A stretch of DNA of 64,000 nt from an uncultured bacterium (lineage in GTDB: Bacteria > Desulfobacterota_D > UBA1144 > Nemesobacterales > UBA2774), in NCBI GenBank assembly GCA_963705505.1, contig CAVPJU010000003.1:128001-192000 (forward strand), written 5' to 3'. This document shows positions 3,262-10,858 of this stretch, piece by piece (positions within the stretch are counted from its first letter, which is position 1; each line of letters opens with the position of its first letter). The notes beneath the pieces were generated by a model. The model worked only from the letters and a program-made list of their open reading frames with translations, had not been told where the DNA came from and searched no databases. The position numbers were made by a program, and so were the translations under genes.

Positions 3262-4102
3262 TTATCCCTGCCCCCAGATATCGAGCGCCCTCTTGTACGT
3301 CTTACTCTTAGAATAGCCCGAACCCTCGGAAACTTTTTTTACCGCGTCTTTAAGACTGAGCCCGCTTTTCTTATAGGCGCCGAGCATCTTGTCAATGTTC
3401 TCCGAATCGACTCCCCCTGCTTTCGGCCGGAGCTCCCTCTACTACGAGTGTCACCTCGCCCTTTATCTCGCTCCGCTTACCGAGAGTTTCCAGAACCCCT
3501 GAAATCTTCCCCCGCAGTGTCTCTTCATAGAGCTTCGTTATCTCGCGGCTGAACGAAATGTTCCTGTCCCCGAACACTTCAAGCATCACGCGGAGGGTCT
3601 TCATAACCCTGTTTGGCGATTCATAGAATACGAGCGTCTCGGGATAACTTTTTATAGTCCCGAGATAATCAGTCAACCGCTTCTTCGTCCGCGGGAGGAA
3701 CCCGAAGAACGCGAAGCTCGACGTGGGAAGCCCCGAGACGCAGAGCGCAGACACGACTGCCGAGGGGCCCGGAACGGGGAGCACGTCGATACCGTGTTCG
3801 GATGCGAGTTTGACGAGCCTGTATCCGGGGTCTGAAATGCCGGGGGTGCCGGCGTCGGAAACCATTGCTATGCTCTTTCCCCCTTCGAGCAGCGAGAGGA
3901 GCTCTTTTGACTTTTCAATCTCATTGTGTTCGTGGTATCCGATGAGTGGCTTATCGATCGCGTAGCGGGAAAGGAGCTTCCTCGTCGTTCTCGTGTCTTC
4001 GCACGCTATCAGGTCGGCTTCTTTAAGTATTCTGATTGCCCTGAGTGTGATATCTTCGAGGTTCCCTATAGGGGTTGAAACGATGTAAAGCTTTCCGCTC
4101 AT
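3262..4102 (-). CDS. rsmI: 16S rRNA C1402 2'-O-methyltransferase, with an apparent +1 frameshift near 3412-3423
   Basis: LYIVSTPIGNLEDIT, ACEDTR, VSDAGTPGISDPG, YESP, SREITK; the typical C-terminal tail (GLSLKDAVKKVSEGSGYSKSKTYKRAL) continues in another frame to TAA at 3262. Confidence 0.92.
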
Positions 4103-4211
4103 CTGGTCTGAGAATAAATCAATACCGGTACTTCAATAATTACATTATAGCCTTAAACCGTATCGACCCTTTATCGGCCTGTGAAACAAATTACCGCCGA
4201 TTCCGACATGA

Positions 4212-4703
4212 CTAATCCACGTTGCATCTCTTATTCGACTCGTAGTTTATGCACTTATCCTGGTCTTTTCCGCCGTCAATGCTGTCAGTGCCCATTCCCC
4301 CGTCGAGGAAGTCCTCGCCATCGTTGCCTTCAAGATAATCATTACCGTCGCCGCCATAAACGACATCGTTGCCTTTTCCGCCTCTGATATCGTCATTCCC
4401 GGCGTCTCCGTAGAGGATATCATCGTCCGCACCACCCGTAATGGTATCATTACCGTCGCCGCCACAAATAACGTCATCGCCGTCAAGCCCTTTGATCTGG
4501 TCATTGCCCCCGAGACCTACAATCACATCCGGGCCAAGTGACCCGTTCAGAGTATCGTCTCCGTTTGTGCCCACGATAGTCGGCGTTTTCCCCTGGCAGG
4601 TGGGCGGAGGCTGCTGAGCCTGATTCGTTGGTGCAGCGTATGAATTGAACACAAACAGTGTTATAGCTAATAAACCGGAAATGCTCATTATTATCCTTTT
4701 CAT
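4212..4703 (-). CDS. Secreted protein with RTX/hemolysin-type Ca-binding nonapeptide repeats
   Basis: Signal peptide; CQGKTPTIVGT followed by repeated GGxGxDxI/L units. Confidence 0.85.
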   Translation of the reverse strand: MKRIIMSISGLLAITLFVFNSYAAPTNQAQQPPPTCQGKTPTIVGTNGDDTLNGSLGPDVIVGLGGNDQIKGLDGDDVICGGDGNDTITGGADDDILYGDAGNDDIRGGKGNDVVYGGDGNDYLEGNDGEDFLDGGMGTDSIDGGKDQDKCINYESNKRCNVD

Positions 4704-4832
4704 GTCACCCCTCGCTAAGACTGTTTATCTAATTCCAATTAAACTCCCAGAGGGGAGAAAAGTCAAGCAAGAACGTCTAGTTATGATGAAGATTAAATCT
4801 TGCCGGATATTGGATCGTATATATGAATAATA

Positions 4833-5036
4833 TGGCGGAGGGCGAGGGATTCGAACCCCCAAGTCCTTTCGGACGCCGGTTTTCAAGACCTAATTAGCAT
4901 ACATTCCTAACTTTCCGGAATCGCTCGAATATTTCTAATCCCCATTCAACAAACGATTTCCATCTATTCCATATGGTCTATTGATTCCGTGTGGTACAAA
5001 TAATTATGGATGGTTCTTAGAAAATGCTTAGAAAGG
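4833..5036 (-). repeat. att-like repeat copy 1: tRNA-Ser 3' fragment (4833-4890) plus conserved arm
   Basis: 58 bp match to tRNA 8142-8199 with one mismatch, then an arm homologous to 7093-7242 ending TTCTTAGAAAATGCTTAGAAAGG. Confidence 0.92.
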
Positions 5037-5043
5037 ATTTGTA

Positions 5044-5370
5044 TCACAGACCAGATAACTTCGAATCATCTCGATACTTACACCAACCACATTCCGAACT
5101 ATGAGGAGGTGGTTCCGGTAAGTCCAGGATGTCCGGAACATCTCCAAGAAATTTTTTGAAGGCAATGTCATCACGCTTAACTTCCGTCCACGACACATTT
5201 CCAGATCGGTCTGCTATGTCTCCTGCTGAATATATAGCCGCTATAGTTTCACGCATTTTATGAGTCCAGTTGAACTGTGTCAATTTAGAATATGAGGAAG
5301 CCTTTCGTGAAGACCGGAGCCCGACCGATTTCAGGGTTAAGTCAGCATACACCGACAAATATTCACTCAA
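5044..5370 (-). pseudogene. Probable C-terminal remnant of a PD-(D/E)XK nuclease-family protein
   Basis: Tail WTEVKRDDIAFKKFL...PEPPPHSSECGWCKYR resembles Cas4/AddB-like nuclease ends; the N-terminal half does not look protein-like. Confidence 0.45.
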
Positions 5371-5430
5371 TAATCATGAAACAAGCATTATAATTATTCA
5401 GCGAAATTTATACCCCAGACGAGGCGGATC

Positions 5431-6912
5431 ATGAGTAAGAAATATGTATCGGTAATATCAGGATTTATCCTTGCGCTTGGACTCTGCGCAATCATAAGCT
5501 TTCAGAACAGCTCTGCAATGGCCGAGAGCGGCAACAGGAAGGAAGATTACACACCGGAGCAGGTGAAAACCCTCAAGAACTGGACTTATTCTCTCGCCCT
5601 TGATGCCGCCACCTGGGGTAGTCCGGCTGTCATTATGTACAACTTGCGGGCCCTCGATGCTTTCGGGTCGAGGCCCAAGGCTGCGCCAAACTCAATCTGG
5701 CGCATGGAAGACATCTCTACCCCCGAACTTTCGGTCGAGGCGGGTTACGTAACACCCAACGTCAATGTGATATATGGCTTTGGCTTCCTCGATCTCGAGC
5801 AGGAGCCGATCATACTGACCGCCCCCGATTCCCACGGACGTTACTATATGGTGGAAATCGTGGACATGTATACCAACGCATTCGCATACGTGGGAGGAAC
5901 GGTTACGGGTTACAAGGGGGGTAAATTTGCTCTAGTCGGCCCGGGTTTCAAGGGCAAACTCCCGGACGATGTCAAAATTATCAATTGCCCCACCCGCTGG
6001 GTGCTGATCCAACCGCGGGTGCGTGTTTTCGACAAGGCCGATCTGCCGGCGGCGAGAGAAGTCCTGCAAGATATTAAAGTGGAGGGGCTGGCCAAGCACA
6101 CAGACCAACCCGCGCCCCCTGCGCCCGAGTATCACTATCTAATCCCAAAGGTGACGGACTCCAAACAACCTGCCAGCGCCATGAATTACGAGGACCCCCT
6201 CCAGTTCTGGGAAATCCTCTCGGCAGTGATAAACGAGAATCCGCCACCTGCGGATCAGGTGACGGCTCTGCTGCCGTACTATAGGTCTCTAGGTATAGAG
6301 CTCGGCAAGAGCTGGGACAGATCAAAGCTCAATCCAACTGTGGTCGATGCAATGAGGCAGGCAGCCGCCGACATCGGACCAATGTTGAGCAACCTGCCCA
6401 CCGAGCGAATTGCGAACGGCTGGTTCATGCCGCCTCCGACCATCGGCAACTCGCAGACGGATTACAAGACACGTGCTGTCGTCGCTCGAGTCGGTCTTAC
6501 GGCCAACGTACCGAGTGAAGCGATCTACTACCTGAGCACGGTGGACAGCAGCGGCAACCAGTTCGACGGCACCAAACAATACACGATTACATTTCAGAAA
6601 ACGCCGCCCTTCATTGCACCGGGTTTCTGGTCGCTTACGATGTACGATGCCACAAACAATTACACTGTACCAAATCCTATAAACCGTTATTTTCTGGGGA
6701 GCGATACCGGAATGAAAACGAATAAGGACGGGTCGCTCACAATATACATTCAACAGAAGAGCCCTGGCACGGATAAGGAATCAAATTGGCTGCCCGCACC
6801 CCCCAAGCCGTTTTATCTCATCCTCCGTTCCTATGCGCCGGCACCCGCTATGATTGAATCCTTATCAGGGGGTAAGGGGTATATACCCCCTCCGGTAGTG
6901 GAAACGAAATAG
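5431..6912 (+). CDS. Exported DUF1254/DUF1214 domain protein
   Basis: Signal peptide; TPNVNVIY, LDL..EP, GRYY...DMYTN, FWSLTMYD, NWLPAP, LRSYAP. Confidence 0.88.
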   Translation: MSKKYVSVISGFILALGLCAIISFQNSSAMAESGNRKEDYTPEQVKTLKNWTYSLALDAATWGSPAVIMYNLRALDAFGSRPKAAPNSIWRMEDISTPELSVEAGYVTPNVNVIYGFGFLDLEQEPIILTAPDSHGRYYMVEIVDMYTNAFAYVGGTVTGYKGGKFALVGPGFKGKLPDDVKIINCPTRWVLIQPRVRVFDKADLPAAREVLQDIKVEGLAKHTDQPAPPAPEYHYLIPKVTDSKQPASAMNYEDPLQFWEILSAVINENPPPADQVTALLPYYRSLGIELGKSWDRSKLNPTVVDAMRQAAADIGPMLSNLPTERIANGWFMPPPTIGNSQTDYKTRAVVARVGLTANVPSEAIYYLSTVDSSGNQFDGTKQYTITFQKTPPFIAPGFWSLTMYDATNNYTVPNPINRYFLGSDTGMKTNKDGSLTIYIQQKSPGTDKESNWLPAPPKPFYLILRSYAPAPAMIESLSGGKGYIPPPVVETK

Positions 6913-7037
6913 GAGCCGAATCAAGCAGCGATATAATGTAATGAATCTGTTATTGTCACTCCGCTCGTATCGACAAACTAAAAGAATTTTATACCTGATT
7001 GTTCACTCCGCCCATATTGTCAATGTGGTCTAATCTA

Positions 7038-7242
7038 TGGCGGAGGGCGAGGGATTCGAACCCCCAAGTCCTTGCGGACGCCGGTTTTCAAGTCCTATTC
7101 AGTGTGTATTCATAACTTTCCGGAGTCACTGAAATATTTGTAAACACACTTAAAAAAACGATTTCCATCTATTACATCTGGTTCAATTGGTTCTATATGG
7201 TGACAAGAATTATGGATGGTTCTTAGAAAATGCTTAGAAAGG
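7038..7242 (-). repeat. att-like repeat copy 2: tRNA-Ser 3' fragment (7038-7092) plus conserved arm
   Basis: 55 bp identical to tRNA 8142-8196, ending exactly at the anticodon-loop edge; arm homologous to 4891-5036. Confidence 0.92.
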
Positions 7243-7353
7243 CAAATTCAGCAATATATTGATATGCCTGCAAACTAATCGCAATAAACTACAATTATTA
7301 GATAATTATGGCGGTGTCTGTTTGAAAATATCCGAACCGAAATCGCTGGGCTC

Positions 7354-7534
7354 GGCGGGCGGAATTCCCCCCAGACCCCCCTTCCGCCCGCCTCGCCTAC
7401 CCGACGAATAGGCGGGAAGCGGAAGCGAAAAGGGCGATTTCAAGTTTTTCGCGGGCGAAGCCCGCAAGGAAAATCATAAATGATTTTCCTCTTTGGTGGT
7501 ATATTCTTTTGTGAAAATTTTTGATTCAAAAATT
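7354..7534. repeat. Cluster of inverted repeats
   Basis: GGCGGGCGGAA/TTCCGCCCGCC (7354-7392), GCGGGC-GAA-GCCCGC (7451-7465), AGGAAAATCAT-AA-ATGATTTTCCT (7467-7490), AATTTTTGA-T-TCAAAAATT (7516-7534). Confidence 0.85.
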
Positions 7535-7600
7535 GAAAAAGAAAAAGGCTCCGTGCGAAACTTCCGCAAGGGGCCCGGGTGCGAGACACGTTGGACTCGC

Positions 7601-7945
7601 TTACTCTTGCCTGACTATGTCGACCGAGATCTCCACCGCCGGAATCGTTCCTCTGTTTTCAAGCCAGTGTGTGGTGTTCCTATCCTCGGGCCAGCCCACT
7701 CCCGGCCCATAGTCAGTAGCGACGCCATTTCGATGGTCAGTGATCGTTCCTTGCAGTATATAGACGGTGCCTGGTCTGTCTTTATGGTCGTGAATCGGGC
7801 CGAAGACGCCTCCAGGTTCGATGGTCACCATACGCATTCGAAGTTGGCGCCCTGCCATGCCCTCGATCTCGGGGCCAAGGTCAACCGTTGCAAGTAACTT
7901 CACCGTAACACCTTTCGTCTCAGGTGCCACCTGTTCGTTGTTCAT
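7601..7945 (-). CDS. Cupin domain protein
   Basis: GAGGAGG RBS before ATG 7945; IEPGG...HDH..RPGTVYILQG and HWLENRG cupin motifs. Confidence 0.88.
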   Translation of the reverse strand: MNNEQVAPETKGVTVKLLATVDLGPEIEGMAGRQLRMRMVTIEPGGVFGPIHDHKDRPGTVYILQGTITDHRNGVATDYGPGVGWPEDRNTTHWLENRGTIPAVEISVDIVRQE

Positions 7946-8141
7946 CGTGTCCTCCTCTTTGTAACTTCCAGGGCCTAACATAGAATTACGTTACAATCTT
8001 ACTAGATGACAACAAATTTCTTAAATTTCTTCTAGAAAAGCCCGCTTTTGGCCTTACCTGAATTCAAAACGGCTTGAATTTTTGGCGAAAAACGGCTGGC
8101 GAGCCCGCGTAGCAGGCGAGCCGACAAACGCATTTCCTAAC

Positions 8142-8227
8142 TGGCGGAGGGCGAGGGATTCGAACCCCCAAGTCCTTGCGGACGCCGGTTTTCAAGACCG
8201 GTGCATTAGCCGTTCTGCCAGCCCTCC
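8142..8227 (-). tRNA. tRNA-Ser(UGA)
   Basis: GGAGGGC acceptor strand; anticodon arm CCGGT-CTTGAAA-ACCGG; long variable arm GTCC-GCAA-GGAC; GTTCGAATC T-loop; G discriminator plus CCA. Confidence 0.96.
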
Positions 8228-8313
8228 GGGGCTCATCGTTATCAGGTACTTACGGGATTTACGGCTATTCTCATAAATGGTTTTTCTAGTAAATTTCTAG
8301 TCGGACTTGGAGA

Positions 8314-8342
8314 ATTGTACTTTATCCCTTCTAGCCATGCAA
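8314..8342 (-). promoter_or_regulatory. Sigma70-like promoter pointing at tRNA-Ser
   Basis: TTGCAT-N17-TACAAT on the minus strand, -10 box about 85 nt upstream of the tRNA. Confidence 0.55.
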
Positions 8343-8354
8343 GGAGAGTGGGTC

Positions 8355-8420
8355 ATGGCCGGTTTATCGAAGAAGGGCAAAGTTTATTACGCGATATTTA
8401 ACATCGGTGGTGGGGCTTGA
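8355..8420 (+). pseudogene. Short stub resembling a tyrosine-integrase N-terminus (MAGLSKKGKVYYAIFNIGG)
   Basis: AAGGAG RBS; basic/aromatic beta pattern like integrase arm-binding N-termini; next to tRNA and att-like repeats; stops after 21 codons. Confidence 0.4.
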
Positions 8421-8446
8421 CATGGTTTAGCCACCTATACGATAAT
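8417..8446 (+). promoter_or_regulatory. Sigma70-like promoter for ORF 8461
   Basis: TTGACA-N18-GATAAT. Confidence 0.45.
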
Positions 8447-8460
8447 CTGTAATTAGAATC

Positions 8461-8898
8461 ATGAAAAAGTTGTGTTTGTTGATAATTGTAAATATTGGAG
8501 TGTTCTGCACTTTAATTGTTGTCATTGAGATTTCTGGTCAAATAGCCTACTATCTCCGTCACGGAAAATTTATTTTCCAGACATCAGATTATAACAGTGA
8601 AGATTATCAAGATCATCTCCAAGCATTCGAGCTACACCCCTATCTCGTAGGAAGGCTCAAGAAAAATATTACTATCAATAGTGTCGAAAACAGCGCGAAG
8701 ATAAAAACCACGAACCGCCATACCCGGTGGACCGGCGCTCCCGAAGACGATAGAAATCTTATAAGAGTTGCCGTACTCGGTGGGTCCACTGCTTTCGGCA
8801 CGGGAGTGACCGATCGCGTGCATTTTGCGACCCTGCATAGCAGGCACAATGAGCGCTTCACCTTTTGTGCTTTCCATCCGATATTTGCCCTCGAGTAA
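8461..8898 (+). pseudogene. Truncated membrane-anchored SGNH/GDSL hydrolase-like gene
   Basis: N-terminal TM helix and block I RVAVLGGSTAFG; similarity ends near 8812 and later SGNH blocks are absent. Confidence 0.6.
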
Positions 8899-9112
8899 AT
8901 AGTTAACCCATTGTATGCGTGAATGTTCTCTATTACTATTCTCTGACAAAGAGGAGGCTCTTGTCAATATCCCTTCCGGCCGCGCAAGGAAAGTATATGA
9001 TGGGTCCAGCGTGGCTGAGTCAAGCCATTGCAGCAGATCCTGTATACAAGCGCGATTTAGCTATTCCGAGTTGAACAAAATCTGTCGAAAGAAATTTGCG
9101 CCGCGGGCAATA

Positions 9113-9472
9113 TTACGACCCCTGAGCGTACCGGGCCATACCAGTGATATCGATTACAACCACAGGCTCGTTCCCGACCACCCACGCGTCATGCCCGGGC
9201 GGTACGTACGACACGTCGCCCGGCCCGAATTCTTCCTCCGAGCCGTCATCCATTTTGACCCTCAAGCGCCCGGAAACGTGATATTGGGTGTGAGGGGCCT
9301 CGCAGCTTTTCGTCTTGGCGATCGGCTTTATACTCTCAGACCACTTCCATCCCGGCTCTAGGGTGGCCCGGCCAAAAGATATGCCGGCCAGTGAAACCAG
9401 CTCGAGTCTCCCATTCGGGAACGACCGTAATTCATCCGGAACGTCCAGGTTTTTCTTTTCCATTTTAGCCAT
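9113..9472 (-). CDS. Cupin domain protein
   Basis: AAGGAG RBS; EPGWKWSE, CEAPH, VPPGHDAWVVG. Confidence 0.88.
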   Translation of the reverse strand: MAKMEKKNLDVPDELRSFPNGRLELVSLAGISFGRATLEPGWKWSESIKPIAKTKSCEAPHTQYHVSGRLRVKMDDGSEEEFGPGDVSYVPPGHDAWVVGNEPVVVIDITGMARYAQGS

Positions 9473-9679
9473 GTTCGGTCATCTCCTTTAATCTAAATAT
9501 AGCATTTGTTATATGTATATTTCAGATTTTCTCATAAACAATAAAATTTTGCAATAGAAGCCTGCAGTTAATCAGGGATGACGGATTTTTTGTCAATGAA
9601 GGATAAGGCTGTATAGGAGCCGGGAGCCGCATTGTGACTTCAATAACTCAATCCGCACGGTTTACAAATGTACATATAA

Positions 9680-10858
9680 CTACGTTCTATAGGTCTTTAA
9701 AAAACCAATAAACCCCCCATATATAAGCGATATAAAAGGTAAAGGGTCACGCATCGAGAGAACGGCGAACGATTTTACGCCGTAGAGAGATTTAAGCCAC
9801 CCCCCTAAAGACAGCCTGCCCATTCTGTAATAGGCCCAGGCGGAAAGAATGTCCTGATGAAGGGAAATCCATTTTACGCCTGCATACCGCTGCCCGTCGT
9901 ACGAAGGTAAAGGTAGTCCCGACGCATCGCAGTACATCGTATATAGTATGGGCACGCCGGCAGCTTCGACGAGACCTATCCTCGTAACAGGACGTCCTAT
10001 GTTGGGCTCGATTATGAAATATCTGCCGCTCGAATTGTCCAGTTTAAATTCGATCGAGCCTATCCCTCTGAACTTGATCCTGCCGAGCACCTCCGCCGTC
10101 GTATTCAATACCAGATCATTCCTGCATTCTTCGGCCAGGCACGCGTCCCCATCGTCTATAAACCATTGTCTCAGCTTACGCGACGTGAACGTAACCGATT
10201 GATTATAATCCTTATCGTGATAAAAAATGCACGAATACAGGTCGGAATCACTGCCATTAATCCATTCCTGGACTATTACATTCTCTCCCGCTCCAGAGCA
10301 TGTCTCGAACACATCTGAGAGCTCCTGAGGGCTCTTAACTTTAATCACTTTATTTTTAAAATATCTGAACCAGTTTGGGGTCCTCACGACGGGCTTGACT
10401 ATATAAGGGAACTTGGCCTTGTTTAGTATCTCGTCCAAGTCCGATTTGTTCGAGGGAAAGAAGGTAGCGGGGATCGGAAGGCCGTTATCGAACGCATACC
10501 TGTAAAAATTTTGCTTGTTCATATAGAGGTCCAGAACATCCGCGTCGGGGATTACGAAGTTATAGAATTCCCCGAGTCTCTCCCTGTTGTCCGATACAAT
10601 GCGCACACTTTCGTCGCTGCACAGGAAGAGCACGGGCTTTCCCCGCAATTTTCGGGCTAAGCTCAATAACGTATCTAAAAGTTTCGCGTCTGAAGTGTCG
10701 GCAAAGAGAATTTCCTCACATGAATTGGTCTTGCAGCAGTAATGCCCTGGATCATCGGCGATACCGACGACCGGTACTTTATAGCGCGACAATACCCTTG
10801 CTGTATCCAATCCAGTTATGGAATCGAGTTTTATGACGACTGCAGGCGGCCTAATCAA
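9680..10858 (-). CDS. ATP-grasp carboxylate-amine ligase (D-aspartate ligase-like)
   Basis: NKQNFY, FPYIVKP, IVQEWING, KLRQW, IEFKLD, IEPNIGR. Confidence 0.8.
   Translation of the reverse strand: MIRPPAVVIKLDSITGLDTARVLSRYKVPVVGIADDPGHYCCKTNSCEEILFADTSDAKLLDTLLSLARKLRGKPVLFLCSDESVRIVSDNRERLGEFYNFVIPDADVLDLYMNKQNFYRYAFDNGLPIPATFFPSNKSDLDEILNKAKFPYIVKPVVRTPNWFRYFKNKVIKVKSPQELSDVFETCSGAGENVIVQEWINGSDSDLYSCIFYHDKDYNQSVTFTSRKLRQWFIDDGDACLAEECRNDLVLNTTAEVLGRIKFRGIGSIEFKLDNSSGRYFIIEPNIGRPVTRIGLVEAAGVPILYTMYCDASGLPLPSYDGQRYAGVKWISLHQDILSAWAYYRMGRLSLGGWLKSLYGVKSFAVLSMRDPLPFISLIYGGFIGFLKTYRT

Follow-up and report, generated by a model that had tools for sequence, protein, structure and literature searches.

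Positions 4833-8227 of the 64,000-nucleotide stretch analysed here (the window, part of contig CAVPJU010000003.1) hold a tRNA-Ser(UGA) gene together with two displaced copies of its 3' end and the short inserted units that these copies delimit. The source genome (G000) is a metagenome-assembled genome (MAG) of an uncultured Dadabacteria-like bacterium, comprising 2.88 Mb on 10 contigs with a completeness of 93.6%; all genomes compared with it are MAGs as well, and one of them, G009, is 7% contaminated. The intact tRNA gene lies on the minus strand at 8142-8227 and is the sole tRNA that ARAGORN calls in the window. It is the attachment site of two families of elements, which we term A and B. 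An Rfam scan of positions 4000-10000 (E ≤ 1) returned this tRNA and two matches at chance level only.

The 3' 58 nt of the tRNA (8142-8199) are repeated at 7038-7095 (97% identity) and at 4833-4890 (57 of 58 positions, 98%), both on the plus strand, that is, as the reverse complement of the tRNA sense, with start-to-start spacings of 1104 bp and 2205 bp. An earlier note on this DNA, made from the letters alone, had described the recurrence of the last 55-58 bp at these two places and had set the end of identity of the copy at 7038 exactly at the edge of the anticodon loop. Both observations are borne out. The copy at 7038 is identical over 55 nt as far as the 5' edge of the 7-nt loop (8190-8196), after which come one mismatch and two matches, and the copy at 4833 extends 3 nt into the anticodon stem with a single internal mismatch. 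The latter begins 36 bp past the conserved left flank; among nine genomes of the same genus that we surveyed (G001-G009), four (G001, G002, G004 and G005) have a fragment at the equivalent place. By its position and sequence, the stretch 4833-4890 is taken to be the displaced original tRNA end, forming the core of an attR-type junction. Both displaced copies continue into a common arm, so that 4831-5036 and 7036-7242 form a 204-bp repeat of about 85% identity, of which no further copy was found elsewhere in the 2.88-Mb genome.

The arm behind the distal copy, which we call the family A P arm (4891-5036, plus strand, 146 bp), ends in a doubled CTTAGAAA motif at 5016-5036, and the second P arm (7096-7242, plus strand) carries the motif at 7222-7242. 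The two arms are about 82% identical to each other, and the second is 96% identical to an arm of G003 that adjoins different cargo. Alignment of 14 arm copies from 8 genomes showed sharp ends, one where the tRNA fragment begins and the other behind the doubled CTTAGAAA motif. The 21-nt motif at the arm end gave two matches in the window, compared with none in 100 shuffles.

Three integrase-bearing members of family A were found elsewhere. One is a 53.8-kb island of G003 (contig C2) in which tRNA-Arg(CCU) is followed, after 16 bp, by the gene for a 371-aa tyrosine integrase at one end; beyond the integrase, the interior encodes a TIR protein, metal efflux, a relaxase-like protein, two coupling proteins, a primase zinc ribbon and a serine recombinase. 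The far end of this island consists of the arm and a perfect 46-nt tRNA fragment, and there is no fragment inside it. A scan of metagenomes for the arm motif gave 28 loci. At locus L092, a tRNA-Ser(UGA) fragment with the arm has an intact integrase gene (353 aa) on its other side, the ATG lying 115 bp away; a doubled CTTAGAAA motif stands 15 nt upstream of this ATG, at a distance of 76 nt to the fragment, and the locus continues with a type I restriction system. At locus L077 an Arg-CCU fragment is followed by a 349-aa integrase. Relative to the G003 enzyme, these integrases show 50% (L092) and 82% (L077) identity. In L077, L092 and L098 the arm adjoins a gene for a 70-aa HTH_17 excisionase, and primase zinc-ribbon domains and relaxase-like genes occur in the integrase-bearing relatives. 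The tRNA fragments that adjoin the arm come from four tRNAs in all: Ser-UGA, Arg-UCU, Arg-CCU and Phe-GAA. Since the same arm forms the far end of integrase/excisionase islands, family A is assigned, on these homologies, to tyrosine-integrase/excisionase elements with interchangeable tRNA cores, with the motif in direct orientation at both ends of each element. The crossover of this family probably falls in the anticodon loop.

Arm-like pieces that seemed to stand without a Ser fragment at non-Ser loci proved to be arms joined to the fragments of other tRNAs, and arm-like pieces inside Ser arrays that have no adjoining tRNA fragment look truncated. Two placements deserve separate mention. In G004 (contig C96; L039/L040) a Phe-GAA fragment with arm lies within the array behind tRNA-Arg(UCU), and in G003 (contig C4; L044) a distance of 7 kb, which includes an IS3-type transposase, separates a tRNA-Phe gene from the Ser-UGA fragment with arm behind it. 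Such fragments of the 'wrong' tRNA suggest either units that move between tRNA loci or a relaxed choice of site.

The distal unit (4833-7037) has tRNA core copies on both sides and an intact P arm. Next to the arm lies an open reading frame (ORF) of 108 codons on the minus strand (5044-5370), recognized by tblastn with a gene of L077 as a truncated PD-(D/E)XK (Cas4-like) nuclease gene: the last 62 aa of its product share 56% identity with the C-terminal end of a complete 244-aa protein whose gene adjoins the same arm in L077 and which matches PDDEXK_1 at 9e-8. The ORF in the window lacks the N-terminal part of the gene and itself gave no Pfam match; it is regarded as the remnant of an element backbone gene. 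It is followed by the intact cargo gene of the unit (5431-6912, plus strand), which encodes a 493-aa DUF1254/DUF1214 protein (Pfam E-values of 7e-36 and 4e-35) with a hydrophobic N-terminus as read from the translation. The tRNA-proximal end of the unit (6913-7037, plus strand) contains a 21-nt direct repeat (6956-6976 and 7003-7023), and the P' motif of family A was not found in it. Because a truncated backbone gene stands beside intact cargo, the distal unit would be a deleted derivative, resembling a cis-mobilizable element (CIME), that has kept the attR side and one cargo gene.

In the adjacent stretch, 7038-7308, P arm and P' spacer enclose no gene. The motif at 7222-7242 is followed by the 66 nt of this spacer (7243-7308, plus strand) and then by TGGCGG, so that the spacer and positions 7038-7242 together make an empty, attP-like scar. 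A similar arrangement is seen in front of intact tRNA genes: positions 7222-7314 are 77% identical to the sequence right before the tRNA in G004, and the distance from motif to tRNA is 67 nt in G003 and G004 and, measured to the fragment, 76 nt in L092. We therefore describe 7038-7308 as a putative empty junction scar of family A. In the simplest reading, its interior would have been lost by recombination between two direct copies of the motif.

Between the scar and the tRNA lies a cassette of 833 bp (7309-8141), with TGGCGG marking its boundaries at 7309 and 8142. Its left arm, X (7309-7470, plus strand), starts with TGGCGG and contains a GC-rich hairpin; its right arm, P'x (8006-8141, plus strand), in which a promoter-like stretch and a T-run hairpin can be made out by eye, ends directly at the 3' terminus of the tRNA. 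Between the arms an intact gene on the minus strand (7601-7981) encodes a cupin of 126 aa (Cupin_2, 2e-9). P'x is 81% identical in G002, where it stands next to different cargo, and both G002 and G007 have the same X/P'x arms with a DUF2975 gene as cargo. The cassette is carried by three of the nine same-genus genomes and by none of the 31 more distant relatives searched. At the nucleotide level the cupin gene is 99.7% identical to that of G009 and 98.4% identical to that of G007. The whole cassette is 98.2% identical in G009 versus 80.1% for the left flank, and 97.2% identical in G007 versus 79.0%.

An occupied and an empty site can be compared directly. In G001 and G005, the closest relatives of G009 (flanks 92-93% identical), the left flank passes straight into the TGGCGG that opens the tRNA fragment; in G009 the equivalent left flank is followed by TGGCGG, 823 bp, a second TGGCGG and then the fragment. 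The cassette thus sits at the tRNA itself in G000 and at the left-flank tRNA fragment in G009. The block shared by these two genomes starts at most 2 bp from the TGGCGG boundary, and because the left neighbours differ between the genomes there is no shared homology to the left of the cassette. Recent site-specific movement between species appears to be the better reading of this cassette.

Several other identities of the X arm were considered. The readings as a tRNA-like gene or as the decayed fragment of a tRNA were rejected, as no cloverleaf is present and ARAGORN is silent. No Rfam match was obtained for the arm, and its predicted fold is weak (z = -2.6). A search by eye for transposon terminal inverted repeats or a target duplication around the cassette showed weak subterminal similarity only. 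The protein family of the cupin comprises 6718 cluster representatives at E ≤ 1e-10, the best of them 90-97% identical and one named from Geothrix limicola, which hints at a very widely transferred gene.

The arms of the cassette recur far outside the genus. A 33-nt core of X gave 109 matching stretches in species-representative genomes, labelled mostly as Patescibacteria, the others as Gammaproteobacteria, Bdellovibrionales, Chloroflexia, Nitrospirae and Dadabacteria; 80 loci (L110-L189) of the 109 stretches were examined. Positions 1-90 of X are 93-96% identical, and P'x is 86-93% identical, to the window in L120, L127, L142, L146, L162, L164, L174 and L186. At the Patescibacteria loci the end of P'x passes through TGGCGG directly into the start of X, in an attP-like order, and the cargo between the arms includes HNH nucleases, type II restriction systems, a multicopper oxidase and an ion exchanger, among others. 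In L120 and L164 a large serine recombinase of about 500 aa is encoded beside the arms, and the outer junction there is P'x against the 3' end of a tRNA-Ser. Searching the literature on serine-recombinase mobile elements of Patescibacteria/Saccharibacteria, bioRxiv supplements being outside the search, we found no published description of such elements, and this tRNA-Ser serine-recombinase family is apparently undescribed.

In G000 itself no homologue of the L120 recombinase was found beyond an ORF read through the antisense strand of the tRNA; this match, which lies in the window, is an artefact. No Resolvase domain was detected in G000, G002 or G007. The window contains one copy of X and one of P'x, with no internal inverted spare attachment site. 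As no serine recombinase was found in G000 despite the homologous arms and the insertion at a tRNA-Ser 3' end, the cupin unit would be a non-autonomous cassette of the tRNA-Ser serine-recombinase family, not a full member of it. Two further observations concern the copies in other genomes. Many X copies lie at the contig ends of Patescibacteria MAGs, as would fit multi-copy repeats that break assemblies. The X copies also fall into two classes: where the continuation is like that of the window, the arm tends to be found right past the stop codon of a gene, and in the others it precedes a promoter-like stretch and cargo genes.

The surroundings of the tRNA vary strongly within the genus. The distance from the left flank (rsmI and a gene with RTX repeats) to the tRNA ranges from 1.9 kb in G007 to 61 kb in G003. 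A fragment with arm is present at the locus in seven of the nine genomes, namely G001, G002, G003 (two), G004 (three), G005, G008 and G009; G007 has an arm end only and G006 none. The units between the junctions measure 2-23 kb and carry exopolysaccharide and cellulose synthesis operons, a TetR regulator with a hydrolase, and sensor kinases. G003 has an additional 27 kb between the left flank and the first junction, with nitrate assimilation genes. Across all arrays the tRNA fragments are 93-100% identical to the tRNA, and the arrays differ by whole units among genomes whose left flanks are 91-94% identical. The search for variable arrays in relatives that the earlier note had recommended thus gave a positive answer, the same arms bounding differing arrays in seven of nine genomes.

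None of the 127 array ORFs contains an integrase, recombinase, transposase or relaxase domain, as judged from domain scans run at 1e-3 (31 ORFs), 1e-5 (46 ORFs) and 1e-8 (50 ORFs). A six-frame search with PF00589, made in G001, G003, G004, G005 and G009 and leaving out G002, G006, G007 and G008, gave no match inside the arrays; one sub-threshold fragment was obtained on the 5' side of the tRNA. With the 371-aa integrase as query, tblastn returned C-terminal remnants only, 5' of the tRNA, in G004 and G006. No common sequence was found at the tRNA-proximal ends of the units.

In the window, PF00589 has no match within 4833-8227 or near the tRNA, and neither tblastn with the family integrase nor the Pfam mobility domains gave a match in 4833-8227. 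Repeats, arms and domain scans therefore bear out the earlier note in that integration junctions at the tRNA delimit recombinase-less units. Its description of two units of 1104 and 2205 bp, each with a single intact gene, stands as regards the spacing, the intact cupin and DUF1254 genes and the absence of PF00589; it needs revision in that the distal unit also holds the nuclease remnant, and in that the 1104 bp are the sum of the scar and the 833-bp cassette.

Outside the interval, on the 5' side of the tRNA and directed away from it, lies a stub of 19 residues (8355-8411, plus strand) that resembles an integrase N-terminus. It was detected by tblastn with the L092 integrase, with whose residues 1-19 it shares 53% identity; the E-value of 0.005 in a 1.5-kb search makes this weak evidence. 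A degenerate doubled TTTCTAG motif precedes the stub at 8283-8303, and the stretch from its promoter to its start is repeated 645 bp further, at 8968-9003. From the tRNA to the next gene there are 885 bp in G000 (8228-9112) versus about 410-440 bp in relatives. In another genome, G014 (contig C1), the tRNA-Ser bears an intact 19.9-kb element that duplicates the 5' 41 nt of the tRNA; its integrase reads into the tRNA and the 3' side is empty. The idea that integrase remnants on the 5' side derive from a resident 'platform' integrase was rejected, as G014 shows them to belong to a separate element type. This tyrosine-integrase type, duplicating the 5' 41 nt, explains the remnants in G004, G006 and G023. 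The same geometry, with a duplication of the 5' 41-44 nt, occurs in G000 as well: at tRNA-Pro(CGG) with an intact 379-aa integrase (C1:257754-268085), and at tRNA-Arg(UCU) with an integrase fragment (C10:547230-549276).

The integrases and integrase fragments of G000 are tied only to the Pro-CGG, Arg-UCU, Leu-CAA and Asp tRNAs. Repeats of tRNA fragments are located near many of its 44 tRNAs. Nine further units bounded by tRNA fragments (L102-L109, on contigs C3, C6, C8 and C10), 0.65-7.1 kb long and with one to eight small accessory genes each, were found at eight other tRNAs: Leu-UAA, Arg-CCG, Gly-CCC, Glu-CUC, Met, Leu-GAG, Thr-CGU (two in tandem) and Pro-UGG. Their cargo includes SRPBCC, DUF3303, another cupin, TauD with GNAT, Usp and LMF1, among others. 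Their 20 ORFs contain no mobility domain and their arms are unrelated. Altogether 9 of the 44 tRNAs of G000 carry recombinase-less units.

We consider it likely, with a probability of roughly 0.68, that the region behind tRNA-Ser(UGA) is an integration hot spot which retains the relics of at least three insertions, made by elements of two unrelated families whose recombinases are gone from the interval. Two insertions of family A would have left 4833-7037 and 7038-7308. An element of this family would duplicate the part of the tRNA between anticodon loop and 3' end, with the integrase tRNA-proximal and the HTH_17 excisionase at the far end; the interiors would shrink by deletion, and recombination from motif to motif may have emptied the proximal element. 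The cupin cassette would then have inserted itself at TGGCGG, the 3' terminus of the tRNA. Family A, the type that duplicates the 5' 41 nt and family B, which uses the last six bases, would accordingly make at least three types of element that target this tRNA. Remains without a recombinase could move only by an enzyme from elsewhere, acting in trans or, through accretion, in cis, or they could have been left by a transient vector. Directly observed are the layout of the region, the homologies of its arms, the relatives that carry an integrase, the empty and occupied sites, and the higher identity of the cassette than of the flanks between species; the acting enzymes, their supply from elsewhere, the positions of the crossovers and the loss from motif to motif are what we infer. 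Movement of recombinase-less units by enzymes from elsewhere is plausible, and the best case for it is the cupin cassette.

Several results weigh against this interpretation. The blocks of family A that are shared between genomes resemble each other about as much as the flanks do (93.9% versus 92.6% for G002 and G004, 96% versus 93.6% for G004 and G008), so that vertical descent and deletion would suffice; for the family A units, descent with deletion may fit the alignments as well as mobility does. Since its P' motif is missing, the distal unit may be incapable of excising alone. The block of 97% identity shared with G007 runs past the cassette edge into the scar (window positions 7204-7258), which would fit import of a larger segment by homologous recombination and not integration of the cassette. 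In many Patescibacteria copies with other flanks the start of X reads GCGG, and the 6-bp direct repeat may thus partly be sequence of the element. G009 has one match to the Resolvase domain, located on a different contig, and in G000 a recombinase could have remained unassembled, as the genome is a MAG at 93.6% completeness.

The earlier note had suggested an integron-like array of cassettes anchored at the tRNA and mobilised in trans. In such an arrangement the tRNA would be a dedicated platform at which recombinase-less cassettes with their own sites are taken up and reshuffled singly by one trans-acting integrase at the anticodon loop. The arrays of fragments and arms in seven of nine genomes, with varying cargo and unit numbers, would agree with this, as would the 127 array ORFs without a recombinase, the 96% identity of the second arm to the G003 arm with other cargo, and the fragments of 'wrong' tRNAs within arrays (Phe in a tRNA-Arg array, Ser behind tRNA-Phe). 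Integrase remnants or an intact integrase also adjoin tRNA-Ser in G004, G006, G023 and G014; however, no intact integrase is found beside the tRNA in G000, and that of G014 belongs to an element of its own with nothing on the 3' side. The units are between 0.3 kb and 23 kb or more in length, entire exopolysaccharide and cellulose operons being among their contents; their tRNA-proximal ends have nothing in common, and a broken backbone gene is found in the distal one. Moreover, ordinary integrase/excisionase elements end in these arms, and the cupin unit has another site and is of another family: its gene, which the note had counted as part of an anticodon-loop system, belongs to a family using the last six bases of the tRNA. 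As neither a resident integrase nor a uniform cassette site nor conserved tRNA-proximal ends were found, an integron-like array is improbable.

The alternative that the note itself named, heavily deleted islands, fares better for the distal unit, with its truncated backbone gene, and for the proximal scar. Extended to the whole region, it would make all units dead relics of complete islands and would attribute the similarity of the cupin units to homologous recombination or to strong conservation of the gene. The nine recombinase-less units at eight other tRNAs suggest frequent integration followed by fast deletion, the truncated nuclease gene and the empty scar are what decay would leave behind, and the shared family A units are no more similar than their flanks. 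The cupin family is huge and highly conserved, and the block shared with G007 passes the cassette edge. Yet the 98% identity between species with flanks at 80% extends to the non-coding arms of the cassette, the block common to G000 and G009 begins within 2 bp of TGGCGG between differing left neighbours, and the fragment of G009 is occupied while those of its closest relatives, G001 and G005, are empty. The tRNA fragments, moreover, are still 93-100% identical in all arrays. The finding that would have spoken for simple decay according to the earlier note, arms confined to large integrase-encoding islands in relatives, was not obtained, as most of these arms bound recombinase-less units. We therefore regard decay alone as rather unlikely, though less so than the integron-like array, and prefer a hot spot with insertions from two families.

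The region is of a known kind, a tRNA-seeded stack of recombinase-less island relics. The review PMC5704250, which cites Pavlovic 2004 and Bellanger 2011, defines CIMEs, sets out a model of mobilization in cis by accretion, and describes CIMEs as having lost the genes for integration and transfer and retained att-type repeats. The units studied here are alike in having no integration or transfer genes between att-type repeats, in their tandem order at the 3' end of a tRNA, and in having integrase-bearing kin at the same site; they also derive from a family with integrase-bearing members (G003:C2, L092 and L077). They differ in that the distal unit keeps only the arm of the attR side and lacks the motif of the attL side, in that G000 has no conjugative partner, and in the host, which is Dadabacteria-like and not a streptococcus.

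A second comparison is with the tycheposon islands of Prochlorococcus. There (bioRxiv 10.1101/2020.12.28.424599), a full tRNA seeds an island containing partial tRNA repeats, most of the material is free of integrases, newer elements displace older ones from the tRNA, and transient elements are proposed to leave cargo. The recombinases at work are of the tyrosine as well as the large serine type, and a figure legend names tRNA-Ser(UGA). The layout is shared, as a full tRNA with partial repeats in the adjacent variable island is also found here; a difference is that the arms of our locus are conserved enough to define a family and that one cassette is held in common with Patescibacteria.

To the tRNA-Ser elements of Patescibacteria the cupin cassette is linked by the same X/P'x arms, by insertion at the last bases of tRNA-Ser and by small, swappable cargo, whereas the G000 copy has no recombinase, its host lies outside Patescibacteria and, in G009, the target is a tRNA fragment. 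The locus shares with mobile integrons a stack of promoter-proximal cargo units that lack a recombinase of their own. Unlike integrons, it has neither intI at its attachment site nor attC; its units are not lone ORFs without a promoter, and its junctions consist of a tRNA fragment and an arm. In staphylococci, composite islands of staphylococcal cassette chromosome (SCC) and pseudo-SCC elements at rlmH, and mobile insertion cassettes, are tandem cassettes without a recombinase, served by a serine recombinase of another element. The likeness to SCC would be an analogy of mechanism only; the recombinases are, as far as tested, not related, and a tRNA end serves as the site in place of rlmH.

The case illustrates, at the level of sequenced junctions, how an uncultured lineage with a small genome gains accessory genes without keeping the recombinases. 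It also defines family A by its arms, motif, integrase and excisionase, with at least four tRNAs as targets. The cupin cassette is believed to be the first recombinase-less example of the tRNA-Ser serine-recombinase family outside Patescibacteria, and one for which both an empty and an occupied site are at hand. More tentatively, recombinase-less cassettes of this family, less than 1 kb long, might cross phyla, from Patescibacteria to Dadabacteria, and dock at any tRNA-Ser 3' terminus, fragments included, with the recombinase supplied in trans by a transient element, the stacked tRNA ends then serving as a capture platform fed by two recombinase families; we hold this to be possible, if doubtful. 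Were it true, the stacked ends would form a natural cassette-capture platform similar to SCC or integrons. Recombinases able to act in trans on arms this short, if they do so, may become useful tools for site-specific integration.

Some features of the surrounding DNA may be added. Sampled words of the window reached a share of at most 0.22 in each of the 24 sequencing runs listed. The last gene of the left flank (4212-4703), conserved in relatives, encodes a small exported calcium-binding protein of the RTX type with 27-nt repeats (family D1; Pfam HemolysinCabind). On the other side of the tRNA, an ORF of 392 aa at 9680-10858, found only in G000, matches, weakly and below the Pfam threshold, the ATP-binding domain of carbamoyl-phosphate synthase and is possibly ATP-grasp-like. 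In G002, G003, G007 and G009 a cupin-2 gene (9113-9472 in the window) directly precedes the homologue of the sequence from 11057 onwards, with no 392-aa ORF in between.

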